Virus record (IMG/VR): IMGVR_UViG_3300008117_000046
Source: an uncultured virus (IMG/VR IMGVR_UViG_3300008117_000046)
Lineage: Duplodnaviria; Heunggongvirae; Uroviricota; Caudoviricetes
Reading direction: 5' to 3' (one strand)
Length of the DNA stretch: 64,000 nt
Shown: positions 4,943 to 52,215 of the stretch, one piece after another
Layout: each line of letters begins with the position of its first letter
Numbering within the stretch: the first letter of the stretch is position 1
Program-made: the position numbers and the translations under genes
Notes under the pieces: generated by a model
Database searches by the model: none
What the model saw: only the letters and a program-made list of their open reading frames with translations
What the model was told of the DNA's origin: nothing

Positions 4943-7900
4943 ATGTCTATATTACAAAGACCAGAATACCCCGAGAATTATACCCTCGATAGTAATTGGG
5001 TGAAAGTACTACCAGAGGACGGCCAACCCTTAGTGGCGCAGGACCTCCTAGAGATGCAATCAATAGTGCATGGCCAGTTCCAGACCGGTATGGATACGCT
5101 CTATAGAGATGGTACTATACTCTCGGGTGTAGAGTTAGTCGTCGTAGGTGATGACGGTACGACCATGGATATTCTTATAACTGAAGGCCGTGTATATGCT
5201 GCGGGTGTAGTAGTCAAGACTAAGCCCACGCGCTTTCAGGTATCACGAGAAGGAGAGACTACATTTTATCTCGAGGTCACCACTACCGTACTCGAGGATG
5301 AGAGTATGCGGGCCGGCAATCAATACGGGCCCCGGGGGGCATCTCGATTAGTAGTTAATAGTAGTATAGTCCTTACGGGGCGAGGGTATCCCCTCTACTC
5401 TATACGCAATGGATTACCTATTAATAGAGCGAGGGACCTACCTGGTGGTATTGAGGAGACACTAGCAGAGAGAGTATTTGAGAGACACGGTAACTTCTGC
5501 GTGCGAGGGCTGGACCTAGCGCTACTGGACCGCCCCCGCACTCTAGCTGATACCAGTCTAGTGACGCTCAATGAAAATTACTCTACACTAGAGGCGCGGG
5601 CTACTGAATCACGTAGCCTATATCTAGAGAGTAAGAGTAGACTAGATGGATTACTACTGCGATTAGATGATGCACGGGATATAAGTAGTGTCAGCCCCAC
5701 GCCCGCTAACCTGACTATACTCGCTGATCTTGAGACGCGTGTAGTGGAAGAAGAGGCCCTGGTAGCTACACTAGAGGCTACCTACAGAGAGAGACAGACG
5801 GCAGCACTGGGCGGGCTAGCAGAATTAGAGGAGGCCCGACGTAGGTCAGAGTCTTCACTTGGTATGTCACTGGCACCTGGAGTAGCCTACGTCGTGGGGC
5901 GTAGAGTAGTTATTGATACACCAATAAATCTAGCACTACAGCGTACCACAGATAGTCAGGTAGTAACGGCGGCTACATTTACTTATGCAGGTATAACTGC
6001 TATAGCCAACCGCACCATATCGCTGCAGGGTACCTCCACGTGGGCTAATGTACTAGCACAGGGTACCCAAGTAAGCATAAGCTTTGCTCCTATCAATAAC
6101 TTGACTATAACTGTGACGGCTAATACTTCAGCAGCCACCTCAGTAGAAACCTTCATAGACTACGTAATAGCTCGCATAGCTACTGGTACTGATAGTAATA
6201 GTACTATTACTGGTACCAACATTACTACGGATGCGGCCCGTAATCTACTCCGAGATGCCATAGCCTTCCGCCGTAATGGACTGACACTCGTCATGGAGTC
6301 CATAGGTATAGGTACCACGTCTAACCTAGTGAACATTACCATAGGTATCACTATCACAGGAGGGGCCCCCAGTAATTTACTAGGCGTCGACGTGCCCATC
6401 GGACCCATTGGAGGTGCAGCCAGTACTAATGAGTTTATGTTAACTCGCCGACCCGTCAAGGAGGTAACGCGACTAGTAGCTACGCTCCAGGAGAATACGG
6501 CTGCCATAGTGCGCGGGCCTACACCCGGCACTAGTGACTACCTAGGGCGAGATACTGTATCTAGTGTGAAATCTGTATTCCAGGGCTCTATTAATTACAT
6601 AGAGGGCCGGGACTTCCAGGTTCTCGATGGTGGTAGACTGGAGTGGGCTCCTAATGGCACAGGGGCTATAGAGCCGGCACCTGGTACTACCTATTTTGTG
6701 ACGTATACGTACTCTAGTCAATTAACACTAGGAGTAGATTTCAATCTCCTGACGGCTACTGACACTATAGTATTTACTGGTACACGGAGCCCCGCACCTA
6801 ATACTACATTCCAGGTAGACTATAGTTATTTCCTCAGCCGCATAGCTATAGTGACGCTAGATAAGGAGGGGCAGCCCGCTGTCATATATGGTGAGGTAGG
6901 AGTTAATCCACAGCCTCCTGCTGTTAGTGGTTCAGTACTACCATTAGCACGTGTGCTTATAAGTAATAATAGCGCCATCATTGAGCCTATCGACTGTCGT
7001 CCTGTCAATTACGATAGTATACGGCAGCTAGCCAGCGCTGTATCGTCATTATCAGATGATATAGATAGACTACGACTCACAACTAGAGCAGAGGGGCTGG
7101 CTTTCACTAATACAGGAGCCGTACCTAACTTTACATCTATAGATGCCCTAGTGGATAGTAACGGCATTAACCTAACGGAGAGTACAGGTATGCTCTCACC
7201 TCTAACTAATAGTCTGACATCCAATAGAGTATATAGCGATGTCAGAGCAACGGCTCCCTCGGCTAGACCTAATAACGCAGGAGACCCCTACATTGTAGTA
7301 CCTACATATACAGAGAGTATCTTCCTCGAGCAAACTAAGCTGACGAAAGAGAGAAGTATACAGCAAACTACAGCCCCGCGGTTATTCTGCCGCAGAGTCA
7401 TCATGGCTAATAGCGATCTAGGGCGGATTAACCCCTGCGACGAGCTGGCCGTCCGAGGAGCTGCTCTATTCAGCTCCACTAGTAATCCCCTCTATCGATT
7501 TATCAATGAGGGCAATAGAGCGGAGTTCACGCGGCTATCTCGTCGTGTACGAGAGGCTATATCAGCAGGTGAGGCTATACCAGCTATAGGTGCTAATCTA
7601 ATGGGGAGCGAGGAGATAGATAAGGCGCGGGCCCAGAATATACGATACACTATACGAGGAGAGGGGCTCCCTCAGGCCAGCTATCAACTACTGATAGCTG
7701 ACACTATCATGACTACTGCAGTACCAATTAATAACACACCAATATCGGGCACCCTACCATTCGCGTTCCGGCCCCGATCTAATGGCATACTCGAGATCGA
7801 GTTATTCCTGCCCGCGCTACCCCCCGGTGTCCATGCCGTAGTGCTACAGTCTGATACACTGAGTGTAAGTAATACGATATCGATATTTAATAATAACCTG

Positions 7901-32028: not shown

Positions 32029-33171
32029 TCAATTTAATAATCTATAGAGATCAAGTAGACTCTGATCCTCTGCGAGCTCAGGGTAACAATCATGGAGATA
32101 GGGACAAGGCTTACCAAAGGAATCGAGACAGGGACTATAATTATCCTCAGGGTAATGGTGAGGGTAGAAACCTGCTGTGATTAATTTGTGCGTGCCAAAG
32201 AATGAGGTTAATACGCGATCCATGATGCTGCGGTCAATAGGCGTTAGTACCAGACTACCCTCCCTGACGTTATAGATACCCATAGCATCAACGCGAGTGC
32301 CTGTCAATTTCTCATAGGCATAGGCATAGGCACAGAGCTGAGGGTTATACGCCAGCTTATCTGTAGTATAGGCAGACTTACTGGTCTTATAATCAACTAT
32401 AGTTAGGCCATGAGAGGTGATTCCCACCCAGTCAATGAAGCCCAGGAGGTTGATACCGGCATCACCGCCGCAATCAGTCGGCATGGGCACCTCATTTATA
32501 ATAGTGCCGTCATTATATCCACTGATAGGTAACTCAACATAGATAGTGCGCTTAAACTCCTTAGGAGGAATAAAGGCCCGGCACAGGTTAAACGCGTCAG
32601 TCAGTGCACCAATAACATCAAGCTCAACATCCAATTCAGGATTAAGCATAAGCATATATTCATTAGCTGCATGCCGTAGAGCGAGGAGGGGCTCCTCTGC
32701 CTGTTTCCATGCAGTAGTAGACTGATAAGCGCTACTCACCTTACCGGCAGCGGTGCGTATGGCATCGGGACCCTTATAGTCAGCGCGGGCTCTGTTATGC
32801 AACACTGCATAACCATCTACTAGGCCCATTAAGTAACTAGAGATAGTGGTCTGGTCCGACGCAGGCGTATTAGATACAATGACACCAGCGGCCATAAGCG
32901 CGCTTATGTAGGTCTCCTCGAGGCACTGCTCTAGATTATAATCATGTTCTACTTCAGGATCATAGTATAACTCGAGGGCCCCATGCACTAGGTTACCCAA
33001 TAGAGTAGAGCGCGTAGCCCCACTCTTCCTATTGAGGTCAACGTATTTATGATAGAACTCCATCCCACAGCGGCGATATACGCGCAGTGCACTAACAGAG
33101 TAGTAGGGCGGGCGTTCTGCTACAGATCGACTAGTAATAATATTAGAGGTCATCGCTAACCTCTGCGCCAT
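32029..33171 (-). CDS. PD-(D/E)xK RecB/Cas4-like exonuclease
   Basis: SVSALRVYRRCG, GNLVH, GFIDWV, IVDYKT, QLCAYA and C-terminal C-x6-CPY-x3-C (Fe-S-type cysteines). Confidence 0.85.
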   Translation of the reverse strand: MAQRLAMTSNIITSRSVAERPPYYSVSALRVYRRCGMEFYHKYVDLNRKSGATRSTLLGNLVHGALELYYDPEVEHDYNLEQCLEETYISALMAAGVIVSNTPASDQTTISSYLMGLVDGYAVLHNRARADYKGPDAIRTAAGKVSSAYQSTTAWKQAEEPLLALRHAANEYMLMLNPELDVELDVIGALTDAFNLCRAFIPPKEFKRTIYVELPISGYNDGTIINEVPMPTDCGGDAGINLLGFIDWVGITSHGLTIVDYKTSKSAYTTDKLAYNPQLCAYAYAYEKLTGTRVDAMGIYNVREGSLVLTPIDRSIMDRVLTSFFGTHKLITAGFYPHHYPEDNYSPCLDSFGKPCPYLHDCYPELAEDQSLLDLYRLLN

Positions 33172-33742: not shown

Positions 33743-33940
33743 TTAATTGAATTGAAACAACCAGGGATTCCAAGTTAGTTCAGTATTATCATCTAACGTG
33801 ACAACCACTTTGTTCTTATGATTAACGTAGGGGTTACCCTTCGTGTTATAACTATAACCCGCTGACTTAGGATACGTTGATTGATATGCTATATTAGTAA
33901 CTACTTTATTATTAATCTCATCACCTAGCTTGATGTGCAT
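33743..33940 (-). CDS. Hypothetical protein
   Basis: 65-aa ORF overlapping the end of the radical SAM gene. Confidence 0.55.
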   Translation of the reverse strand: MHIKLGDEINNKVVTNIAYQSTYPKSAGYSYNTKGNPYVNHKNKVVVTLDDNTELTWNPWLFQFN

Positions 33941-34842
33941 GAGAAGCCTGCCTGGAAGTAATCGATTAGTGAAGTAGAGTCGAATGACGTGCGGTTATAA
34001 CTACGACTAGTAGGAGCATACTGCTGCTTAACCGCATCAATATACATAGTGAACTGGAAGTCATCGCCCATATAGAAGCGGGCCCACCCCTCATCAGTGA
34101 ATAAACGTCTGAGCTCTAACTGTTCGATAGCCAGGTTATCAAAGGAGAGATTACACCTGCCTATAAGAAAGGGTAGAGAACGCCGCCACTGCGCTATGCC
34201 TGCATCTACCTCAGGGCTATGATAATCTATACCGAAGCCGAAGTTCTTATAGCCTAGTACGAGTACCTTACTGGTTGCAGCACTGAGATTAACCAACTCA
34301 TCGATTATACTAACGGGATGGATACCAGCGATTATGTGATACACGATGTTATCTGAGAGACGCAGTACTGATATCAGACTGCTATAGTTACTACTAGTAA
34401 TTGAGATGCCGAGGCCCCGCACTAACTCCCGGCTTACGATATCCTCTATTAGAGTATCGTAGCGATGTAGATGACCTTGGTTAACAGTAATGTTAGCTAT
34501 AAGCCCGCGGGCCTTAAGTTCTACTAGGTAATCCACTATATTAGGATGAGATAGTGGGTTACCACCTCCGTTTGCTAACTCGACCCCAGCAGGTATATCA
34601 CTAAGGACATCGAGTAACCGTGTTAGGTCAGCGTGTTTACCATTACGAGTAGAACTCTCATGACAATATTTACATCCCATATCACAGTAGTCAGTGATCT
34701 TAATATCTATAGAGCAGGGATAGGCGGGGCGGGCCCCAACCACACTTGTAGTACGAACCAGGGTACCATCAGCATATAGAGTACACTCATAGTCACCATT
34801 GGTATAATGCGCTAAAGTTGTCGTTTCATTAAACTTATTCAT
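33925..34842 (-). CDS. Radical SAM protein
   Basis: CDMGCKYCHE (CxxxCxxC), GGGNP, ANITVN. Confidence 0.9.
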   Translation of the reverse strand: MNKFNETTTLAHYTNGDYECTLYADGTLVRTTSVVGARPAYPCSIDIKITDYCDMGCKYCHESSTRNGKHADLTRLLDVLSDIPAGVELANGGGNPLSHPNIVDYLVELKARGLIANITVNQGHLHRYDTLIEDIVSRELVRGLGISITSSNYSSLISVLRLSDNIVYHIIAGIHPVSIIDELVNLSAATSKVLVLGYKNFGFGIDYHSPEVDAGIAQWRRSLPFLIGRCNLSFDNLAIEQLELRRLFTDEGWARFYMGDDFQFTMYIDAVKQQYAPTSRSYNRTSFDSTSLIDYFQAGFSCTSS

Positions 34843-37095: not shown

Positions 37096-37585
37096 TAAAT
37101 AATCTCCTGTTAATATCAGATGATAGGAAGGCCTCTAACCAGACAGGGCGGGGCTCTATAAGATAACAGGCCCGCGCTGCGATAAGAGGATGATAGAAGT
37201 AAGGTAAAAACTCTAGCTGAGCTAGTGCCTCTATATGATGAGGCGTAGCTATACCTCTATGATCTAGTATACCCAGGGTAGGGTAGCGCTCGTGATATAT
37301 ATTTAGGTTATAGTTGTGCAGATACTCAGTAGTATCTAGACAGTACCAGGCAGCGCCAGAGCGGGGCCGCTCCATATCAGATAGGTAGCCTGTTATAATC
37401 GGCGGGCCCTCACTATCCTCACATAGATACTCTATGGCACGTCTATACATACGCCACTCCTGGGCCCAACTCGACTGTAGTGTTATAGTAACAGCACTAT
37501 AGCGGCCATCAGCGTAACGCCCTACATAATAGGGGTATATCATACAATCGCGAGCTGGTATACTCACGTGATAATTAGTCATCAC
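37085..37585 (-). CDS. Hypothetical protein
   Basis: 166-aa ORF overlapping the primase stop. Confidence 0.6.
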   Translation of the reverse strand: MMTNYHVSIPARDCMIYPYYVGRYADGRYSAVTITLQSSWAQEWRMYRRAIEYLCEDSEGPPIITGYLSDMERPRSGAAWYCLDTTEYLHNYNLNIYHERYPTLGILDHRGIATPHHIEALAQLEFLPYFYHPLIAARACYLIEPRPVWLEAFLSSDINRRLFNVC

Positions 37586-38775
37586 GATCCAAATAGTAGA
37601 GAGGCATATTCAAGGGGCCCTAATTGATTATCTACATAAGGAGCCAGTAGCCCTAAGGGGGAATGAGTGGCAGTTAATACCCGCAATATATCTACGTGAT
37701 GACTAATGTCGGGCCCCCATTGAGCTAGTAAATCATCTACGAATAGTATGCGGTTAGCATTAATAGTATCAGCAGCATTAACGCGAGGCTCTGCTACCAA
37801 CCACTCATTAATATCCTTATAATCAGCAACCATATACGTCATAAGCTCAGCTAATGGTAAGTTAATCTGCAGCTGAACTAGTTGAGGTATGATACGCACC
37901 CAGCTCTTATATACGCCAGCATGAGTAGGATGATCATCGCTATACTTATCTGAGTCGAATATAAATGTGATATGACGGAAGGGCTTGAATTTACTGGTGT
38001 GACATAATAGATACTCCAGACCCAATAACCCCACTACAGGTAAACCACGACCTACTAGTGATGTGGCATCAGGCGGGCCCTCAACTATATATAGCTCGCG
38101 AGCTGGGTGCTTACTATACTCCTTAAGACAATGTTCTAGATAGAGATAGCGCTTACTATTAATAGCGGCCCGCGTATCCTTATAACGGGGGGCCCTCTCA
38201 CTACTACCTATATAGCGACCAACCATATGGACTAGATGACCTCGTGTATCTCGTATAGGGAATATAATGCGTTCCCTATAGTAATCCTCGCCGTCCTCCT
38301 TAATCAGACCCTCGCGGGCTAATGCCTCATGATCTATATCGAATTGACGTAGACCACCAGGAGGAGCATACCCTATACCAATACTACGAGCTAGATCGAG
38401 AGACCAGCCCCGCCGTAGTATATAATCCTGAGCAGCAGGCGTAGTATCAAGATAATAGTGATAGGCCTCTAGCGCGCTCTCTAGTACTATACTGCGAGCA
38501 TCCATAACCTCGCGGGCCTGACGTATACCGGCGCGGGCCTCTAACTGTTGCATAGCCCCAGCATAATCAAGCTTAGTATGCCAACGCCAGGCATTAACCA
38601 GGCCCATACCTGCGTTCAACTCACAACTAGTCCTCCAGCACTTCATATAGTGCGGATATACACTCAGCTTACCGCGGCCCCCACAAGCAGGACAATCATT
38701 AGTACCATGCCGTAGATTTAGTAGCTCTGGTATAGTTAGCCGCTCCATTATCAGTTGTTCATTCTCTCTCGTCAC
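37582..38775 (-). CDS. DnaG-type DNA primase
   Basis: Zn finger CPAC...CWRTSC, IGYAP, RIIFPIRD, GRY...PRYKD, TOPRIM IVEGPPD and FDSD, KDINE. Confidence 0.9.
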   Translation of the reverse strand: MTRENEQLIMERLTIPELLNLRHGTNDCPACGGRGKLSVYPHYMKCWRTSCELNAGMGLVNAWRWHTKLDYAGAMQQLEARAGIRQAREVMDARSIVLESALEAYHYYLDTTPAAQDYILRRGWSLDLARSIGIGYAPPGGLRQFDIDHEALAREGLIKEDGEDYYRERIIFPIRDTRGHLVHMVGRYIGSSERAPRYKDTRAAINSKRYLYLEHCLKEYSKHPARELYIVEGPPDATSLVGRGLPVVGLLGLEYLLCHTSKFKPFRHITFIFDSDKYSDDHPTHAGVYKSWVRIIPQLVQLQINLPLAELMTYMVADYKDINEWLVAEPRVNAADTINANRILFVDDLLAQWGPDISHHVDILRVLTATHSPLGLLAPYVDNQLGPLEYASLLFGS

Positions 38776-41700
38776 CGCTCTCCGTATATTGTATGAATGC
38801 CCTATAATAACTAAGCTTGAACTTAAACATTAATACATATTGCCTGTTAATGGCAAGATGCTCGAGATAAGTGATGTCACTTACCCGTAGCCCATTCCAT
38901 AAGAATATCTCGGTCAACATACCTCACCCACGTCATCCATACTTCCGTTCTTAAGGGATACCTTCGACATGGTTCAGGCCATATATTTATATCTCGTCTA
39001 TCGCGCCACATATCGCCCTCTAATATAAATTGCATACTTCCAGTCTGTAATAAAACAAAGCAAGTTCGAAAGAATTACAATCATAAAACTTACGCATTAA
39101 GTGATATACCTCAATGGGGGGTTCAGGCATAAACATAGAGGCCTTCAGCTTATTGTGCAGAGTCCAATCGTTATGATTAATAGTATTCATTCAAACAAAC
39201 CTTTATGATTCAATCTAGAGTAAAACGAACCGACATGATTCCTGCTCATTAAATAAGAGCGGGTTACTAAGTAATTTGCAGGCTCAATAAGTATAAAGGC
39301 CTTAAGCTTATTGTGTAGAGACCAATCATTAATCATAATCATCTTCATTGAAATCATCTTCATTGAAATAACCGCCCTTATGTATAATGTCATCCTTACT
39401 CATTCTCATCTAAAATGTGTTAGACAATTCACTTACCAGTCTATAGTAAAACTGGTCGACAGAGGTAATAAGTATAGAGGCCTTCAGCTTATTGTGCAGA
39501 ATCCAAATATTACAATTTAGTCTTCATCGAAATAATTGTATAGCAGTCTATAGTAAAATTGATCTATAAAAGTAATAAGTATAGAGGCCTTGAGCTTATT
39601 GTCGATAGTCCAGTCGTAAAGCGAACCCAATTTGAAATAATCATTATTACACAGAACCCAATTATTATATAAAATCCAATAAGTAGAAATTCTCTTCATC
39701 AAAACAAACCCTTATGATTCAATCTAGAGTAAAACGAACCGACCTTATTAAATAAGACCAGGTTACTAAGTAATTTGCCCCAACGAAAGACTCAATAAGC
39801 ATAGAGGCTTTTTATTATTTGTCTCAGTGGAAGGTTCAGTAATAAGTATAGAAGCTTTAAGCTTATTGTGTAGAGTCCAATCACACAAACTCTTATGACC
39901 CAATCTAGAATAAAACAAACCGACATAGTACCTGCTCATTAAATAAGACCAGATACCATAATTTGCCTTAACGGAAGGCTCAATAAGCATAAAGGCCTCA
40001 AAGGTCCAATCATTAATCATAATCATCTTCATCGAAATAACCGTCCTCATTTAGAATAATAAACCAATAAAACCGGGTTACTAAATAATTTGCCCCAACG
40101 GAAAACTCAAGCATAGGGGCCTTAATAAGCTTATTGTGCAGAGACCAATCATTAATCATCTTCATCGAAATAATCATCTTTATATAGAATGTCGTATATC
40201 GCAGCTCTTAGTCTATAGTAAAACCCGCCGGTAGAGATAATAAGTGTACGGGCCTTTAACTTATTGTTGAGAGTCCAGTCGTAAAACAAAGCAAGTTTAA
40301 AAACTTTACAATTAACCATCTTCATAAAATGCAACTCTTATGATTCAATCTAGAGTAAAACGAACCGACATAATACCTGCCCATTAAATAAGACTCGGTT
40401 ACTAAGTAATTTGCCCCAACGGAAAACTCAATAAGCATAGAGGCCTCAAGCTTATTGTGCAGAGACCAATAATCATTAATCATCTTCATCGAAATAACCG
40501 TCCTCATATTCATCAAATTGGCCATCCTCAAGATAATAACCGCCCTCATCTAGAATATCATCTTTATCTAGGATGTTTTCTAACATATTTATCAATCTAC
40601 AGTAAAACCGGAAGATAGAGCCGCAACACTTGCTTAGTTTAGGAGTATAAATCTCGAAACCCATCTCTTCATAATAATGAAACAAGCGCAAGGCATTGAG
40701 ATAATCATTATTCAAAATCCAAGGTAACAGACAATCGTTAGAAACATTCTTCATTGAAATAACCGTCCTTATATAAAATATCATTCTTATTCATCCTCAT
40801 CTAGAATGTTATGTATAACACACTTACCAGTCTATAATAAAACTGGTCGACAGAGATAATAAGTATAGAGGTCTTCAACTTATTGTGCAGAGTCCGAAAG
40901 TAATTTGCCCCAACGGAAGGCTCAATAAGCATAGAAGCTCTAAGCTTATTGTTTAGAGTCCACCCTTCACATATAATCATCTTCACTAGAATAACCGTCC
41001 TTATGTATAAAGTAATCCTTATTCATTCTCATCTAGAATGTGTTAGACAGTCTATAGTAAAACAGGTCTACAGAGGTAATAAGTATAAAGGCCTTCAGCT
41101 TATTGTGCATAATAAAGGCAAATTTGAAAGATTTATAGCTTACTAAATCATTTATCTCAGCGAAAGACTCAGTAGTAAGTATAAGGTTATTATGTGTAAT
41201 CCAATATTTAGAGATAGTGTTCATTAAAGTAATCATCCTCATTTAGAATATCACTCTCATCTAGAGCGTTATATATAAAAGCCACTAGTCTATAGTAAAG
41301 CCGGTTGATAGAGCACTTGCTTAATTCAGGAATATGACTCTCGAGGCCCACATCCTCATAATAATAAAACAAGTAATTAAGCTTGTTACAACTAATTGCT
41401 CTCATTGAAGTAATCGCCCCCCATTCAGAAAGCCATATATCCCAAATTCTCCCATTCTATAATAAAACCAGGCGAGTCCCCCAGGACTATAAGCAAAATA
41501 CAATTTACCTAATAATACCTGTAGGTCAACAGACGGATCAGTAATAGGTATAGGTATATTTAACCTATTACGTGGGGCCCATTTGCTACAATTAATTATC
41601 TTCATCGAAATAATCATCCTCATCTAGAATGTTATATAACACATCTCCTAATCTATGATAAAATACGTTGATAGGAACATGTAACTTGTTCAATTCAGGG

Positions 41701-44700
41701 ATATAGACCTCGATACCCATGTTTTCATAGTAGTAACGATAAGACCATAGATGGTATTTTCTATTACGAGGAGCCCAATTATTACAACTAATCATCTTCA
41801 TCGAAATAATCGTCCTTATCTAGAGCGCTATATAATCTAGAGTAGAACGAACGGACGTAGAACCTGCTTATTAAATAAAACCTAGGTACTAAGCCGGTTG
41901 TTCTAACGGAAGGCTCAATAAGCATAGAGGCTCTAAGCTTATTGTGTAGAGTCAACTCATCACATATAATAGTCTTCATAAAAACATACTCCTACCCAGT
42001 CTGAAGTAAAACAAAGATGTCGAAGCAGACACCCCCACCCAAAAAATACTGTAATGCGTAGCGAGGTTGAAATAATTATGATTATAATACTTTCTTACAT
42101 TTATATCAGTGGAAGGCTCTCTACTAGATATAGATACCCTAAGTTTGTTATTAAGCATAGGCCAATAACTAATCATCTTCATCGAAATAATTATCCTCAT
42201 ATAGAATGTCGTATATCGTAGCTTTTAGTCTATAGTAAAACCCGCCGGTAGATAATAACTTTAGCTTATTCTTGGGAGTCCAGTCGTAAAACAAAGCAAG
42301 TTTGAAAACGTTACAATTAATCATCTTTATAGAATATATACTTATTTACTATGTCACATACCAGTCTATAATAAAATCGGTCGACAGCATAAAACCTTAA
42401 TTCAGGAGTATAGGTATCGATATCCATACGCTCACAATAATAAAAGAAGTAATTAAGCTTGTTATAACTAATTGCCCTCATTGAGGTAACCGCCCCCCAT
42501 AAAGGCCATATAACCCAAATCCTCCCAGCCTATAATAAAACCAGGCGAGTCTCCCAGGACTACAAGCAAAATACAATTTACCTAATAATCCTTGTAGGTC
42601 AACAGACGGATCAGTAATAGGTATAGGTATATTCAAGTTATTACGTGGGGCCCAATTGTTACAATTAATCATCTTCATTAAAGTAATTGTCCTCATATAG
42701 AATGCTATACAACACTACTCCCGCTAGTCTATGGTAAAACCTGGCAGGCCCCCCAGCGTTATAAGTATGAAAGTTATAGTTATAGAAACTGTAGTATAAA
42801 CTATCACTGTCTACTAAAATCGACGGGTCAGTGATATATGTATTTAGTTTACTACGTGAAGGCCAACCATTAATCATCTTCATCGAAATATAACAATCTA
42901 TGGTAAAATCAAACAGTCCCTCCTCTAGAATCATCAAGATAGAAGTTATAGAATAACTTATTATCTGCTATCAGAGGGTTAGTAATGGGTACAGGTGCAT
43001 TCCATGCATACGAAACCCATTCAATATCACGCGGAGCCCAACCGTTAGAATTAATTATCTTCATAGAAATAATGATAGGTTACGGTAAACGCAAGCGACT
43101 CCTCCGGCACTATAAGTGTGAAATTTATAGTATAAATAATTACGGTTTGCTATCAACGGGTTGGTAATAGGTACAGGTATATCCCGTATATGCGCAGCCC
43201 TTCTATTACGAGAGGCCCAATTGTTACAATTAATCATCTTCATCGAAATAATCATCCTCATTCAAAGGTAACACTACTGCTCCTGCCAGTCTATAATAAA
43301 ACATAGTGAGCCCCCAATAAACTCTAATAGGCATAGATATATTCAACTTATGACGTGGGACCCATTTGTTACTACCAACTATCTTCATAGAAATCGTCCT
43401 TAGCGAACAGTGTCAGTCTATAATAAAATAACATGATAGAAGTTTTGTAGTGGTAACGATAAAAGCTATAGTATAAACTATCACTGTTTGCTAAAACCGA
43501 CGGGTCAGCAGCAAGTATATTCAACTCATTACGTAAAGGCCAATTGTTAATAATCTTCATCGAAATATAACAATCTATAGTAAAACCAAGCAGGCCCTCC
43601 ACCATGATAAAGATAGAAGTTATAGAATAACTTATTATTATCTGCTACTGGAGGAACAATAATAGGTACAGGTGCATTCCATTCATACGGAGCCCATTTA
43701 ATAGTACGCGGAGCCCAATCATTACAATCAATCATCTTCATAGAAATAATCCCCCTCCCCTAGAAAGTCATATAACAAACATGCTAGTTTATAATAAAAC
43801 AAGTCGATAGGAACATGTAACTTGTCTAATTCAGGGATATAGGCCCCGAGACCCATGCTTTCATAGTAGTAACGATAGAACCATAGATAGTATAGATTAT
43901 CACCATTTGGTAAAATCGGTGGGTCAGTAATAGGTATCGGTATACTCAACTTATTACGTGCAGTCCAACAATCGTTATTACTATGAGGCGCCCAATTGTT
44001 ACAATTAATCATCTTCATAGAAGTAATAATAGGTTGTAGTTATCTTCATCTAGAAAGCTATACAACACTACTCCTACTAGTCTATTGTAAAATTTGGCGG
44101 GCCCTCCATCATGATAAAAATAGAAGTTATAGAATAACTTATTATCTGCTATTGGAGGGACAGCAGTAGGTACATATGCCCCCCATCCAGACGGAGCCCA
44201 TTTAATATTACGCAGAGCCCAATTATTACAATTAATCTTCTTCATAAAAATAATGATAGGTTATATTACGGTAAACGCAAGCGACTCCTCCGGCACTATA
44301 AGTGTGAAAGTTATAGTATAAATAATTATGGTTTACTATTAACGGGTTAGTAATAGGTATGGGTGCGGCCTCTTCATACGGAACCGGCTTATTACGAGGA
44401 GCCCAATCGTTACAATTAATCTTCTTCATAGAAGTAATATTCTGCCCCTGTCAGTATATAATAAAACATATCAAGCCCCCCAGTATCATTATAAACATAA
44501 AAACTATCGTATAAATTATCAATGCTCATTAGAGGCGGATTAGTGGTAGGTATGTATGGAGTCCACGCATAACGAGGAGCCCAATTGTTAGAATTAATCT
44601 TCTTCATCGAAATAAGTGTCCTCATATAGAATGTTGTATAGCACACTGAAATAACCACCCTCATTTAGAATGTTATATAACATATATGACAGTCTATGAT

Positions 44701-46120
44701 AAAACCAGACGAGTCTCTCAGGATTATAAGCAAAAAAGCATAATCCCTGTAGGCCAACAGGCGGGTTAGTAATAGGTATAAGTATACTCGACTGATTACG
44801 TGGGGCCCAATTGTTAGAATTAATCTTCTTCATCGAAATAATTGTCCTTATATAGAATATATAATACTATTCCCGACAGTCTATAGTAAAATATAGCAAG
44901 TCCTCTAGAATTATAAAGATAGAAGCTATAGTATAAATTATTGATATTTGCTACTGGCGGGGCAGTGATAGGTATAGGTGCAATCCATTCACTACACGGG
45001 GCCCAGCAATTTGGATTAATTGTTTTCATAGAGATAGTTATCCTCAGCTAAAATATCAATATCCTGTCTGTAGTAAAACGCCTTGAAATAAAAGAAGTTG
45101 ATAGAGACATATAACTTGTGTAATTCAAGGGTATAGGCCCCATATATACTTATCTGCCATGTGTATACACAGTCTATAGTAAAATCGGTCGACAGCATAA
45201 AACCTTAATTCAGGAGTATAGGTATCGAGACCCTCAACAAAATAAAAAAAGTAATTAAGCCTGTTACATCTAATCGCTCTCATTGAAGTAATCACCCCCC
45301 AAGCTTAAGGTCTCATTCAGAAAGTGATATATCACAAATTCTCCCAGTCTATAATAAAACCAGGCGAGTCTTCCAGGACTATAAGCAAAATACAATTTGC
45401 CTAATAACCCCTGTAGGTCAATAGGCGGGTCAGTAATAGGTATAGGTATATTCAAGTGATTACGTGGGGCCCAGTCATTACAATTAATTATCTTCATCGA
45501 AATAATCATCCTCACCTAAAATATCAATATACCAGTCTATGTTAAAGAGCGCTGATAAAAACGCAGGTTATAATAAAACAAGTCGATAGAAAAATATAAC
45601 TTGTCTAATTCAAGAGTATAGGCCCCAATTATAATTTCATAGAACCATGTATAATATAAATTATCGCCGTTTGCTAGAATCGCTGGGTCAGTAATGGATT
45701 TAGATATAGACATATGTGGACCCCAATTACTACTAAGCCAACCATTACAATTAATAATCTTCATAGAGATAATCATCCTCATCTAATGATAGTTTACGGT
45801 AAAACCAAGCAAGCCCTTGATTATTATAAGTATGAAACTTATAGTATAAATTATGACCACTTGTTATCAGAGGATCAGTAATAGGTACAAGTTCACCCCA
45901 ATATGGAGCCCATCTAGTATTACGAGGAGCCCAATCATTAGAATTAATAATCTTCATCGAAATAGTCCCCCTCATCTAGAATGTTATATAATACATTTCC
46001 TGCCAGTCTATAGTAAAACTTGGCGGGCCCCCCAGCATTAACGTAGTAGTAGACCCATTCGCGATACGGCGCCCATTTCTCATTATGGGGCGCCCAACAG
46101 TTTGTATTAATCTCTTTCAT
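38759..46120 (-). repeat. Tandem array of about 35 paralogous mini-ORFs (about 200-bp units) joined by a conserved junction repeat
   Basis: Recurrent + strand motif aatcatcttcatcgaaataatc near 39340, 39520, 40020, 40155, 40480, 41595, 41790, 42170, 42670, 42870, 43230, 43550, 43730, 44010, 44235, 44420, 44600, 44820, 45485, 45750, 45945 and others. Units encode MKxI(N)..W..(R/H)N..P..(F/Y)YxRL..DEDDYFDEDD. Confidence 0.9.
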
Positions 46121-46523
46121 CAAATGCCTCCTTTTTTACTGGACGTAAAACCGACTTTTTCTTATAAGCAACCACCATTAAATACACCTCTAACAAAGCC
46201 TCAATAAGAGACTCCTGCCGAGAACCAAAACAGCGTGAAGTCTTGGAAGGATCAGGATTCACGCTGACCTGCACAGTATAACTATTAGGTAATCGTTGGA
46301 TGACCCAACCATAGCCAAAGCTATCTAGACGCATTTGGAAAAAATAGATCAACTTAGCAAGCGACCCCCGATCTAACAAAAAGGGATCAGGATCAGAGGT
46401 AGAGATAGAAATCCAATCACCCCAAGATAGTTGGATAAAAAAGGTATTCCGAAAAGTACCCACTCCATACCCACAAATGTGAGGCTCAGACTTGACCCAA
46501 TCGTGCAAAAATTCAGTAAGCAT
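46107..46523 (-). CDS. Hypothetical protein leading the mini-gene array
   Basis: 138 aa, SD GGAGG; its end (FDERD*) overlaps the first array ORF (MKEINTNCWAP, ATG at 46120). Confidence 0.65.
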   Translation of the reverse strand: MLTEFLHDWVKSEPHICGYGVGTFRNTFFIQLSWGDWISISTSDPDPFLLDRGSLAKLIYFFQMRLDSFGYGWVIQRLPNSYTVQVSVNPDPSKTSRCFGSRQESLIEALLEVYLMVVAYKKKSVLRPVKKEAFDERD

Positions 46524-46560
46524 TTATACCCTCCGTATAGATGACAATATGTTGTACCAC

Positions 46561-46595
46561 ATACTGTTATTTCAGTTGTCCTGAAATAACAGTAT
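46561..46595. other. Perfect 15-bp inverted repeat
   Basis: atactgttatttcag-ttgtc-ctgaaataacagtat. Confidence 0.8.
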
Positions 46596-46677
46596 AACTA
46601 ATTATTCTTATCATCAATAAGAATAGACTAACTAGCAAAAGAATACTCGTTAAGATACTTTATGTCTAATTAATTAA

Positions 46678-47004
46678 TTAAAATTGTTGAATAATAACGC
46701 CCCCCTCAAATTTAATTACTGTTGTTCTGTCTTCTAGATAAGTAATAGCAGATGACTCTACATCATTCTCATCCTCATCATCTTCTGGTATAAAGCCATA
46801 ATGTTCGGCCGCTTCTAGTGCGCTAGAGTATTCTGAATATTCACACTGCATAGCGACTCTATCAAATTCGATAGATTTATCAAGGTCATCCTCTAAATCT
46901 TCTAGATACCCAACTAAAGCCTCAGCGCCCGACCATGACCAATCAGCATTACCATCTTCTTTGAGTAGCTTGATTGCCTTATCGGTGCTTATATTTTGGT
47001 GCAT
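46678..47004 (-). CDS. Hypothetical acidic phage protein
   Basis: EFDRVAMQCEYSEY motif; 108 aa. Confidence 0.65.
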   Translation of the reverse strand: MHQNISTDKAIKLLKEDGNADWSWSGAEALVGYLEDLEDDLDKSIEFDRVAMQCEYSEYSSALEAAEHYGFIPEDDEDENDVESSAITYLEDRTTVIKFEGGVIIQQF

Positions 47005-50146: not shown

Positions 50147-50228
50147 TGGGTTAGGCTGGGTTTGCACCAGCGTGGAATTACTCTACAGATTTACAGTCTG
50201 TCGCCTTCGACTACTCGGCCACTAACCC
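50147..50228 (-). tRNA. tRNA-Tyr(GTA)
   Basis: Acceptor GGGTTAG/CTAACCC, anticodon arm ACAGA-CTGTAAA-TCTGT, long variable arm, T arm GCTGG-TGCAAAC-CCAGC; CCA not encoded. Confidence 0.9.
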
Positions 50229-50269: not shown

Positions 50270-50731
50270 TCATGGTTTTTGATTTTCTTGATTCTTTTGA
50301 GATTCTTGCAAATTGAGAAGTTGAAGCACAGCTTCATCTGCGTCTTTACGCGCCATACTACAAGTCCATAGTCTTTGTTCATTGCGCTTAATAATGATAA
50401 TTTCTGTATCAGAAACTGAACAAACTAAATCATTTTTCTGTTTTATTAGTTGATTAAGAGATTCTATTCGTTGCTTTTGTTCTAATTCAGAAACGGGTTG
50501 AGGTTTTTCTCCGTACTCTTGTGTAGAGAAAACAATAGCTAACATAAAACTTTTTGTTTCTTTAAACTGAAACCGAATAATCTGCCAACTAAATTCACCA
50601 TCAGGTTCTAATTCTCGATTCCAAATATTTAGAAAGGTCTGTAAATAACCTTCTAATCCTTTTTGAGTTTGACGGTTTTTATTAATATCACTGACTAAAA
50701 ATCCCGTATCTAACAGAATATTTGACTTCAT
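50270..50731 (-). CDS. Protein resembling the C-terminal domain of cyanobacterial N6-MTase/type IIG R-M enzymes
   Basis: IIIIKRNEQRLWTCSMARKDA motif; no catalytic MTase motifs. Confidence 0.45.
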   Translation of the reverse strand: MKSNILLDTGFLVSDINKNRQTQKGLEGYLQTFLNIWNRELEPDGEFSWQIIRFQFKETKSFMLAIVFSTQEYGEKPQPVSELEQKQRIESLNQLIKQKNDLVCSVSDTEIIIIKRNEQRLWTCSMARKDADEAVLQLLNLQESQKNQENQKP

Positions 50732-50973
50732 TTGCTGCCAATACCTCGAAGATAGTCTTTATTAGTGGCTAAGTCCCCCGGTCCGCCATCGACACAACCA
50801 ATATATTCTTTGGCTGCTTCATAGAATGAAATCGTTTTTTCTTCAGTGAGTTCTTTCTTCTCTGCCTTAAATTGCAAGAATTTAATAAAGTCGATTACTT
50901 CTTGCTGTTGTTGGGGAGTGAGGGCGTTTAGTTTTTCTAAGATGGTTTGTGAGTGAGTGGTTGCTGATATCAT
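50728..50973 (-). CDS. DUF2281-like putative antitoxin
   Basis: ILEKLNALTPQQQQEVIDFIKFL and C-terminal GPGDLATNKDYLRG. Confidence 0.65.
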   Translation of the reverse strand: MISATTHSQTILEKLNALTPQQQQEVIDFIKFLQFKAEKKELTEEKTISFYEAAKEYIGCVDGGPGDLATNKDYLRGIGSK

Positions 50974-51104: not shown

Positions 51105-51410
51105 TTATTCATTGCCAAGATACCATTGCTTATCACTAAGAAACCAGAAAAACATTCCTTTGCAAGAATTAGTACAGTCTTTCTCAGATATTAATTCTTG
51201 CCATAAACGAAAACATTCAAAAAATTGCTCCCATCCATAAGGAACATCTTCTTTAAGATTAGTCCAAATAATAGATAGATACCTTTCGATAAGATTGCGT
51301 ATTGTTAAGATTAAAGAGTGTGGTTTTATTCCCATCTCTTTTAGTTCTGCTTTGGTTAATTTCTTTCTTAGAAATTGATCGATCTTTTTATCTAGTTGCG
51401 TTTGATTCAT
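51105..51410 (-). CDS. Hypothetical protein
   Basis: 101-aa ORF starting 12 nt downstream of a CRISPR-like repeat. Confidence 0.55.
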   Translation of the reverse strand: MNQTQLDKKIDQFLRKKLTKAELKEMGIKPHSLILTIRNLIERYLSIIWTNLKEDVPYGWEQFFECFRLWQELISEKDCTNSCKGMFFWFLSDKQWYLGNE

Positions 51411-51422
51411 TGTTTAGTATCA

Positions 51423-51925
51423 GTTTCAATCCCTAATAAAGCTTAAACTTAATTGTTTCTTTTTCCTTAATATTTAATCTTCTCCCCAATCTGGGTAGTA
51501 TTGTAAATAGACAGCTTGTCGCTCGATAGCTTCCTTCTCAAGCTTTTCAATTTCTTCGTCATCGAAGTCGTGGTCCCAAATTAGAGAATCAAGAAACTGG
51601 TCTTCTTTCTCTATAAACAATTCCTTCTTAACCATAAAATCTTGGCAACCATAAGACATCCCTCCGCTTTTCCCTATAAAAATAAGCGCATTGTCTTCAA
51701 CGGTCGCCAAAAACTCTTTTAATTGTTTTGCAGTAATCACTTTGTGTCTCCTAAATAAAAAGTTATCTTATCAATATTCGGATTGGGAATCTACCATAAT
51801 TCAATCAGTTTCAATCTCTAGTAGGGTTTAAAACTAATACACAATAACACCTACTATTAACCAATTACGTTGAGTATGATAATGGTGAATCTCAAACCCT
51901 ACTAGGGATTGAGATTAATTCTAAC
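51423..51925 (-). CRISPR. Three degenerate type I-D-like repeats (51423-51459, 51808-51844, 51889-51925); no cas genes
   Basis: Each matches 28-29 of 37 nt by my manual alignment to the Microcystis repeat as I recall it (GTTCCAATTAATCTTAAACCCTATTAGGGATTGAAAC); all three in the same orientation. Confidence 0.65.
51474..51740 (-). CDS. Small acidic hypothetical protein between CRISPR-like repeats
   Basis: 88 aa, D/E-rich, SD AGGAG, GTG start. Confidence 0.65.
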   Translation of the reverse strand: MITAKQLKEFLATVEDNALIFIGKSGGMSYGCQDFMVKKELFIEKEDQFLDSLIWDHDFDDEEIEKLEKEAIERQAVYLQYYPDWGED

Positions 51926-51951
51926 ACAATTTCTAATGTCTGTTAATAACT

Positions 51952-52215
51952 ATGGCTAAGAAGAAGAGCTTCACTTTTAAGAAAGAGCACAAGGATCCGG
52001 ACGGAGGGCTAACAGCTAAGGGCCGCGCTGATTACAATCGCGCTACTGGCTCTAACCTGAAGCCCCCTGCCCCTAATCCCAAGAACAAGACGGATGCGGC
52101 CCGCCGTAAGAGCTTCTGTGCGCGTAGCGCAGGCCAGGCGGATATGCACGATATAGACTGTCGCAAGACACCTAACAAGCGCTTATGCAAGGCCCGCAAG
52201 GCATGGGCATGCTAG
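51952..52215 (+). CDS. DUF6321-like basic phage protein
   Basis: KDPDGGLTAKGR..YN...GSNLKPP...RRKSFCARS...W.C. Confidence 0.8.
   Translation: MAKKKSFTFKKEHKDPDGGLTAKGRADYNRATGSNLKPPAPNPKNKTDAARRKSFCARSAGQADMHDIDCRKTPNKRLCKARKAWAC

Follow-up and report, generated by a model that had tools for sequence, protein, structure and literature searches.

Cas-less mini-arrays of CRISPR (short palindromic repeats, clustered and regularly interspaced) have been described in the viruses SPV1 and SPV2, where the spacers match stretches of sister viruses that lie near the arrays, and the carrier has a different sequence at its own locus; why the targets lie so close to the arrays is left unexplained in that report (PMC6858448). 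Here we describe a locus in a 64,000-nucleotide (nt) stretch of DNA from an uncultured phage of the Caudoviricetes (IMG/VR record IMGVR_UViG_3300008117_000046; hereafter the window), in which three 37-nt repeats, named c1, c2 and c3, occur on the minus strand, with c3 and c2 enclosing a 44-nt spacer, E. As far as can be judged from its sequence, this locus is made up of two separate CRISPR-derived elements, the unit c3-E-c2 and the solitary repeat c1, placed in the leader and gaps of an accessory operon that runs leftward. Phages shape Microcystis blooms, and among the defences of this host against Ma-LMM01-like phages, type I-D CRISPR has been studied best. Virus-borne mini-arrays, solitary repeats and phage type V-U2 systems are already known kinds of element, of which this locus is a new example.

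Scanning with the host repeat recovered three co-oriented 37-nt repeats on the minus strand, at 51423-51459 (c1), 51808-51844 (c2) and 51889-51925 (c3), exactly where a sequence-only reading of the window had placed them. Its 44-nt spacer between c2 and c3 (51845-51888, minus strand) and its whole gene of 88 amino acids (aa) between c1 and c2 (open reading frame, ORF, at 51474-51740) were recovered as well. A repeat search of the locus returned a single family with three direct copies, plus an inverted pair arising from the palindromic cores. The 18-nt core pattern was matched five times at no more than three mismatches, which corresponds to the three loci, with two matched on both strands; 0.48 matches were expected, and 0 of 100 shuffles reached five. 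Similarly, four places in the window were identical to the host repeat at 27/37 positions or more, versus none in each of 20 shuffles.

Each of the three copies departs from the host repeat, known in the two forms DR1 and DR1b, in its own way. The degenerate I-D-type repeat c3 (29/37 to DR1/DR1b) keeps its core hairpin, which is intact and lengthened to about 12 bp; its 3' handle, TTTGAGAT, is degenerate and agrees with ATTGAAAC at 5/8 positions. The repeat is near-palindromic, and its plus orientation also matches (27/37). The second degenerate I-D-type repeat, c2 (29/37 to DR1b), keeps the handle ATTGAAAC intact and matches at 21/22 over its 3' 22 nt, with a 5' part unlike DR1 and one C.A mismatch in the stem. 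Both c1 and c2 end in ATTGAAAC and are then followed by TGAT, as had been claimed from the letters alone. The shared TGAT is not kept in relatives, where TAAT or TGAC is found, and it was therefore regarded as a coincidence. A reading of c2 and c3 as a miniature inverted-repeat transposable element or other inverted repeat was also rejected, because the palindromic core accounts for the inverted match, and aligning the two in the same orientation works equally well or better. The only CRISPR-type match in Rfam, to CRISPR-DR2, was below threshold, at 21.7 bits against a gathering score of 37.

Related loci, numbered here with the prefix L, showed variants of the same repeats. The 17-nt core of c3 was swapped for its exact reverse complement in L150 (1494-1530) and L152 (2316-2352), with the hairpin retained, and this flip brings the minus-strand copy to 32/37 with the host repeat. 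More solitary or third repeats of the family were observed in L151 (1614-1650 and 3673-3709) and L146 (3683-3719), ending 5-8 nt before a start codon; in L151, c3, c2 and a third repeat follow an 81-nt period.

The core pattern corresponds to the 3' part of 37-nt repeats in cyanobacterial arrays, in at least 122 stretches. When the locus was compared by BLAST with 401 genomes of the order, matches were obtained in 72, and two genomes of 4.5-4.9 Mb gave 237 and 89 matches. Arrays built on one 37-mer, in two forms differing in a loop base, were found in two host-genus genomes (110 + 19 + 2 of the 132 sites in one genome; 107 + 25 of the 135 sites in the other). These forms are DR1 and DR1b, which Table 3 of a comparison of 14 M. 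aeruginosa genomes ties to subtype I-D cas genes (PMC4428289). Alignment to the host repeat thus places c2 and c3 in the same repeat family, at 29/37 and not as exact copies; the proposed I-D assignment holds for these two and not for c1, which is of V-U2 type (35/37). In the host genomes the matches sit within arrays, and the possibility that the repeats are dispersed chromosomal sequences acquired passively was discarded. The proposed lack of cas genes was borne out within the 64-kb window: none of its 37 ORFs of at least 130 aa matched a Cas effector model, tblastn with C2c8 found nothing, and one weak Cas4-like nuclease domain was located 19 kb from the repeats.

With up to 3 mismatches allowed, the window yields spacer E just once. 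Among GenBank phages, it was found only at its own locus, once per genome in four sister genomes, and the remaining matches had E-values of at least 0.3 and concerned unrelated phages. The 20-nt core of E was detected in 13 IMG/VR contigs, 7 of which have c3/c2 flanks and 6 of which have no repeats. In the repeat-free contigs the sequence lies 19 nt upstream of the start codon of a DUF6321 gene, and it is identical to the E of the window at 43/44 positions in five contigs and 42/44 in one; the spacer version of L152 and L178 equals the commonest repeat-free allele (44/44). Since E is single-copy in the carrier and occurs without repeats at the matching place in sisters, the carrier has the sister sequence only inside the array. 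Host-type repeats and a spacer matching sister phages both speak for the mini-array that had been suggested, and a one-spacer mini-array is a credible description of c3-E-c2.

A pattern search of whole phage records located I-D-type repeats elsewhere, at 6 sites in Ma-LMM01, 8 in MaMV-CH01 and 2 in MaMV-CH02. In MaMV-CH02, two perfect DR1 repeats stand behind a promoter (L165 1497-1609; PP681322.1, about 40393-40505) and enclose a 39-nt spacer that is identical to the promoter region of Ma-LMM01 (39/39), with a GTT protospacer-adjacent motif (PAM). The phage's own copy of this target matches at 35/39, with the four changes at spacer positions 7-10, in the seed region. Judged on these matches, the MaMV-CH02 spacer is a candidate for phage-versus-phage targeting via the host I-D system, and a cleaner one than c3-E-c2. 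Ma-LMM01 itself carries a three-repeat mini-array (L173 764-943; NC_008562.1 35763-35942), 36/37 identical to DR1 and placed behind a TGnTATAAT promoter, which is annotated in the record just as a '56 bp repeat unit', under the small hypothetical ORFs gp049 and gp050. Its first spacer matches MaMV-CH02 at 34/36, with a GCC flank. The second spacer was observed to be an imperfect inverted copy (26/33) of a sequence 78 nt downstream. Two perfect DR1 repeat sites were also located in MaMV-CH01 (PP681321.1, about 40345-40438). Because the mini-arrays of MaMV-CH02 and Ma-LMM01 are directed at sister phages, the prior for the same reading of c3-E-c2 is higher. A literature search, made partly at title and abstract level, yielded no paper linking Ma-LMM01 to mini-arrays or solitary repeats.

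The solitary repeat c1 has another source. It is 35/37 identical to the type V-U2 (C2c8/Cas12u2) repeat of L148, versus 28-29/37 to the host I-D repeat, and on this alignment its repeat family is not that of c2 and c3. The stop codon of the 88-aa gene precedes c1 by 14 nt, and the ATG of a 101-aa ORF follows 12 nt after it. Across 19 viral and 8 metagenome loci with relatives of the 88-aa gene, of which 5 are close, the interval between the two genes occurs as four alleles: a single c1 (the window and nine loci); an unrelated 96-nt gap with no repeat (L142, L143, L146 and L158); other inserts of 2.2 kb (L155, L156 and L159); and, in L147-L149, the 88-aa gene followed by a 602-aa ORF, 170 nt, four repeats with three spacers, and the 101-aa gene. 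In these last three loci the fourth repeat joins the 101-aa gene exactly as c1 does (repeat, 12 nt, ATG). The window has no c2c8 gene, no conserved gap and no other repeat-spacer unit at this junction. Because relatives carry c2c8 and four repeats at precisely this place, c1 is the orphaned last repeat of a C2c8 array, most likely left behind by recombination or deletion.

The 602-aa ORF contains Cas12f1-like_TNB, OrfB_IS605 and HTH_OrfB_IS605 domains and passes, with 458.5 bits (cut-off 350), the NCBIfam model V_cas_c2c8 ('type V CRISPR-associated protein C2c8'). In PADLOC, Cas12u2 matches it best (2.8e-163), and its nearest solved relatives are Cas12f and TnpB. Close homologues of c2c8 in viral contigs (L188-L205) are followed by 4-18 such repeats in 18 out of 18 cases, after a conserved gap of 172-184 nt; these arrays hold 118 spacers, 80 of them distinct, and the lineage bears NlpC/P60, Rha and p160 genes where flanks are seen. 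No cas1 or cas2 was seen in the ORF lists of L148, L153 and L156, the flanks of L188-L205 not having been searched for cas genes. A duplex search for an anti-repeat like that of a trans-activating CRISPR RNA near c2c8 gave nothing specific.

One V-U2 spacer points to the phage group of the window. The third spacer of L148 (S3, 5014-5049) matches NC_008562.1 27674-27702, at 28/30 in Ma-LMM01; the target is intergenic between gp036 and gp037, is matched at 27/29 in Ma-LMM01, MaMV-CH01 and MaMV-CH02, and has a 5' flank of TAAA. Of the 80 distinct V-U2 spacers that the 18 loci hold, L148 S3 was the only one to match when all were searched against the window and six phage loci, so that targeting of Fukuiviruses, the genus of these phages, by V-U2 rests on one spacer; a 14-nt V-U2 spacer match to the window is at chance level. 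The whole arrays of L198 and L196, compared with GenBank phages, matched only phage records with CRISPR-like repeats, the matching part of the query being unassigned.

The c2c8 gene was also found in 3 out of 17 host-genus genomes, in one copy each, with 88-90% identity to the phage protein. It directly follows cas6d (E-value 1.7e-142 for Cas6d and 1.1e-172 for Cas12u2) and precedes the I-D array. One or two V-U2-type repeats come after it and pass in register into the DR1 repeats, with cas2d in between in one genome. The V-U2 repeats of Microcystis phages and the host I-D repeat have their 3' 18 nt in common, which is explained by this in-register continuity in the host. The host loci are L171 3328-7554, L172 1-8278 and L167 (G217 C209), and in two of the three, cas4, cas1 and the leader appear to have been replaced.

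A promoter-like site on the minus strand (51918-51946; TTAACA, 17 nt, TAGAAT, with TG before the -10 box) agrees with the consensus at 10 of 12 positions. Its -10 hexamer occupies positions 3-8 of c3, and the predicted start is a few nt before the c3 hairpin. The same promoter-like element is present in Ma-LMM01, where the -35 box is a perfect TTGACA. Part of the stretch occurs in 14 RNA-library runs, and assembled contigs from four studies could be placed on it; one 4.3-kb metatranscriptome contig spans the whole locus, and shorter contigs cover c2-c3. As assembled contigs, these data indicate presence and give no ends, strand or level, DNA carry-over is possible, and uncovered parts mean nothing. 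Two contigs from two studies end at 51747/51748, which is a hint at most. On the strength of these contigs, the locus is likely to be transcribed.

The Cas6-1 protein of Synechocystis cuts a near-identical repeat 8 nt before its end and needs a stable repeat hairpin in context (PMC5741207). We predicted stem pair probabilities thermodynamically with 40-nt flanks. The predicted probability of the I-D stem was 0.81-1.0 for c3, 0 for c2 and at most 0.01 for c1; ten host repeats in context ranged from 0.04 to 0.93, most of them above 0.5, and the four V-U2 repeats of L148 gave 0. The best hairpin (c3) thus has a degenerate handle and the exact handles (c2 and c1) have poor hairpins, which weakens the earlier proposal that host Cas6 would cut at the two intact handles. 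Outside its core, c3 differs from DR1 by T15C, A35G and C37T, each of which adds a Watson-Crick pair to the long hairpin.

These data fit a scheme in which c3-E-c2 would be a decayed one-spacer mini-array of the host I-D repeat family, set directly behind a leftward promoter. The phage would transcribe the unit, on a transcript that would start from the promoter-like site and take in E and c2, then the 88-aa gene, c1 and, last, the 101-aa gene; host Cas6d and the I-D complex would turn the transcript into a guide, and the E guide would direct attack on a co-infecting sister phage. Transcription from the promoter-like site, processing by Cas6d and interference are steps that we infer by analogy with described systems. 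We give an even chance to the view that the three repeats, now worn, arose as viruses turned CRISPR against one another by means of Cas proteins borrowed from the host.

Several observations weigh against such a use of c3-E-c2. The I-D PAM of M. aeruginosa is GTH (PMC7648086), and it is missing beside E in 5 of the 6 repeat-free alleles (all IMG/VR contigs), which have ATT as their 5' flank; the sole GTT allele mismatches the E of the window in the seed, at spacer positions 4 and 8. The M. aeruginosa I-D system uses spacers of 35-36 nt (PMC7648086), shorter than the 44 nt of E, which stands at the top of the 31-45-nt range given for spacers of most DR1 arrays (PMC4428289). In the repeat-free alleles the promoter -10 region is similar to the 5' part of c2, and the synteny allows that E could have been intergenic DNA native to the place, around which repeats were inserted or duplicated, instead of an acquired spacer. 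Promoter-like sites number 3 in the region versus 3.4 in shuffles, the site that overlaps c3 being a consensus match only. The hairpins of c2 and c1 are predicted at about 0, the 5' handle of the guide would be TTTGAGAT (5/8 to ATTGAAAC), and the pair-adding changes of c3 suggest selection for a plain stem-loop rather than a Cascade handle. Moreover, the RNA contigs show presence only, with no processing ends. With its degenerate handle, a c2 hairpin that is not predicted, a long spacer and a GTH PAM in one of six alleles, c3-E-c2 is probably weak in its present state.

Repeats of this kind may also act as decoys, in the manner of RNA anti-CRISPRs (Racr), an option that the sequence-only reading had favoured alongside the mini-array and that we consider rather unlikely. 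Abundant repeat RNA would then bind host Cas6d, Cas7d and Cas5d (c3 and c2) or the C2c8 of hosts and rival phages (c1), useless complexes would lower interference, and the acidic 88-aa protein would be a protein anti-CRISPR of the same operon. Racr candidates are reported to cluster with acr genes, one of them 11 nt after an acrIC5 homologue (PMC10651486); here c3 starts in the promoter-like site, and a small acidic ORF (isoelectric point, pI, 4.24) ends 14 nt ahead of c1. The c3 hairpin is predicted (0.8-1.0), the exact 8-nt handle is kept in c2 and c1, and the variants of c1 show no handle changes, with one stem change converting G.U to A-U; a decoy against V-U2 would be useful to a phage, as S3 of L148, a rival-phage spacer, matches Fukuivirus genomes at 27/29. 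However, Racr candidates were picked for their likeness in sequence and structure to the cognate repeat (PMC10651486), whereas identity is 78% here and the I-D hairpin is predicted to be absent in c2 and c1, and the table of solitary repeat units (SRU) in that report, searched by sequence fragments and sample numbers, does not include these repeats (PMC10651486). The history of c1 is simpler as an array leftover, the 88-aa protein has no detectable relation to anything, and alleles without a repeat between the two genes occur in the same backbone (L142, L143, L146 and L158). The decoy idea would extend across classes if C2c8 works on Cas6d-cut guides, since c2c8 lies between cas6d and the I-D array in 3 of the 17 host-genus genomes: c1 and c2 would load host or rival C2c8 and I-D proteins with useless RNA. 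The 18 phage c2c8 contigs are described with 4-18 repeats but no cas6, the flanks of L188-L205 not having been covered by a search for cas genes. We regard this extension as distinctly unlikely. If it holds, C2c8, a class 2 nuclease, would take its guides from repeats of class 1 type, and the conflict would have three sides, namely the host, the myophage and another phage lineage.

We assign a similarly low probability to inert relics, the repeats then being neutral debris that recombination among phages, host arrays and V-U2 loci of phages had left in a hypervariable region of cassettes. The defect differs from copy to copy (handle, stem or 5' part), indel junctions lie inside or beside repeats, Ma-LMM01, MaMV-DC and MaMV-CH02 lack the whole segment, and the alleles of this mosaic region number at least four in the interval from the 88-aa to the 101-aa gene, with several others upstream. 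Neutral debris is harder to reconcile with the 144-nt block from promoter to c2, which shows 0 differences in L151, though the 88-aa gene differs by 5.6%, and 7 of 144 in L152, three of which are one hairpin flip, for a difference of 7.1% in the 88-aa gene; mosaic recombination could produce such conservation without selection. The changes in c3 are pair-forming and not random, and the same phage group has intact promoter-driven mini-arrays with a PAM-correct target. Exaptation as RNA or operator signals would account for the pairs gained by c3, which would be a 5'-terminal stabilising stem-loop of the leftward transcript or a palindromic operator between the divergent genes, with c2 and c1 marking cistron boundaries: the hairpin of about 12 bp stands near the predicted start and is strengthened by its departures from DR1, solitary repeats precede start codons by 5-12 nt in relatives (c1; L151 at 1614 and 3673; L146 at 3683), and the 536-nt transcript folds better than shuffles (z -5.35). 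This fold signal comes largely from pairing among the quasi-palindromic repeats themselves, however, an ancestry of array followed by gene also predicts a position before start codons, and the RNA contigs resolve no ends; we hold this to be highly unlikely. It is extremely improbable that the locus is a Cracr element, in which degenerate repeats and a pseudo-spacer direct the Cas proteins of the host to shut down its own cas genes or toxin genes that guard CRISPR. Degenerate repeats around one spacer behind a promoter do have the architecture of viral Cracr (bioRxiv 10.1101/2024.10.29.618823). Yet E and the 44 nt after c2 and c1, compared with four host I-D/c2c8 loci (about 41 kb, both strands), gave at best 15/20 PAM-proximal matches, as in shuffles, with a GTH flank at none of them, and the targets listed in that report are V-A, I-F, I-E, I-C and I-B, with no I-D among them (bioRxiv 10.1101/2024.10.29.618823).

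By sequence match, the 5 kb around the locus belong to a Microcystis myophage of the genus Fukuivirus (Ma-LMM01-like), in agreement with the host proposed earlier. MaMV-CH01, DL01, DL02 and DH01 are 95.5% identical over 87% of the 5-kb query, whereas Ma-LMM01, MaMV-DC and MaMV-CH02, at about 94% identity, cover just 72% of it. An AT-rich mosaic accessory cassette of about 769 nt (window 51144-51912, no strand assigned) is present in the window and in MaMV-CH01, DL01, DL02 and DH01; it is absent from Ma-LMM01, MaMV-DC and MaMV-CH02, which have about 110 other bases there instead. Its GC content is 0.32, versus 0.51 to its right. The junctions, read from the ends of alignable sequence, fall inside the gp163 homologue on the left and inside c3 on the right. 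Homology of LMM01 type resumes at 51913, as it does in one metatranscriptome contig with the LMM01-type allele; positions 1-13 of c3 are therefore backbone and promoter sequence, common to phages without the insert. To the right, the DUF6321 gene (gp164 homologue; 51952-52215, plus strand; Pfam E-value 5.1e-26) diverges from the repeat-bearing operon and is the synteny anchor for spacer E.

The 88-aa ORF (minus strand) is acidic, with 22 D+E and 9 K+R residues. No family was found for its product in Pfam, NCBIfam or PADLOC, and none of the 17 host-genus genomes gave a match. Just 12 close relatives are known from our searches, in one cluster among 1.84 billion representatives; the ESM Atlas returned only unnamed viral clusters, below 0.9, and the AlphaFold model has a mean confidence score (pLDDT) of 56.8, too low for a fold search. 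The 101-aa ORF (51105-51410, minus strand), which directly follows the V-U2 array in relatives, shares its C-terminus with the N-terminus of Ma-LMM01 gp163 and has no family in Pfam, NCBIfam or PADLOC either.

Other features of the window were also recorded. A tRNA gene with a long variable arm was found at 50147-50228 on the minus strand (Rfam tRNA, 59.2 bits), and its homologue is annotated as tRNA-Tyr in Ma-LMM01. An 81-aa ORF at 50728-50973 (minus strand) matches DUF2281 below threshold (25.4 bits, cut-off 26.5); it is also present in L138, L140 and L157, not in MaMV-CH01, and forms another small cassette of the variable region. Weak PADLOC matches, all on the minus strand, were obtained for a Cas4-like PD-(D/E)XK nuclease domain (32029-33171, E-value 8.6e-8), a viperin-like radical-SAM protein (33925-34842, 5.9e-9) and a protein resembling DnaG and reverse transcriptase (37582-38775, 7e-12); these three are probably ordinary phage replication or nucleotide genes. 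Unlike the remaining window, the 8 kb at 39000-47000 are AT-rich (GC content 0.34-0.39), with a sole ORF of at least 130 aa (46107-46523).

Ma-LMM01-like phages thus carry CRISPR parts, both worn and intact mini-arrays built from the host repeat, and they hold remnants of a compact Cas12-type (V-U2) system that is whole in a second phage lineage. If the guides work, exclusion of one phage by another through host Cas proteins would affect the coexistence of genotypes in blooms, and the reading of host spacer records would be affected as well. The window itself is of modest practical value, as its copies are degenerate and may no longer act.

Compared with described systems, the locus resembles Cracr elements (bioRxiv 10.1101/2024.10.29.618823) as a phage sequence in which degenerate repeats flank one spacer-like segment, and differs from them in that its complementarity to four host cas loci is not above chance. 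With the Racr candidates and SRUs described in PMC10651486 it has in common cas-less phage repeats, a c3 placed after a promoter-like site and a solitary c1 placed 14 nt after an acidic ORF; unlike those, its repeats are less similar to the cognate ones, the c1 and c2 hairpins are predicted to be absent, and c1 can be traced to the end of an array. The cas-less array of the freshwater Nostoc cyanophage N-1 is reported to be transcribed during infection and is presumed to use host Cas proteins, but it is regular, whereas the window holds one worn spacer unit and one orphan repeat (PMC4916379; PMC6293099). The cyanophage vB_AphaS-CL131 has a TnpB-like C2c8 beside a short array, with no other cas gene described, and thus represents the source type of c1 (PMC6293099). 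Whole V-U2 loci are held by L147-L149 and L188-L205, whereas the window has one repeat and no c2c8; the CL131 repeats measure 36 nt and are reported to be unlike those of the host (PMC6293099), whereas the V-U2 repeats of Microcystis phages match the 3' 18 nt of the host I-D repeat. The mini-arrays of SPV1 and SPV2 differ from c3-E-c2, in which c2 and c3 are only 78% identical to the host repeat and each have their own defect, the spacer measures 44 nt, the I-D PAM is missing from 5 of the 6 target alleles, a cyanobacterium with type I-D serves as host, and the evidence comes from sequence alone. What they share is one or two spacers between host-type repeats, the lack of cas genes and an upstream promoter, which for c3-E-c2 is a promoter-like consensus site, together with a spacer that matches close relatives near the position of the array, in a carrier that has no target outside it (PMC6858448).

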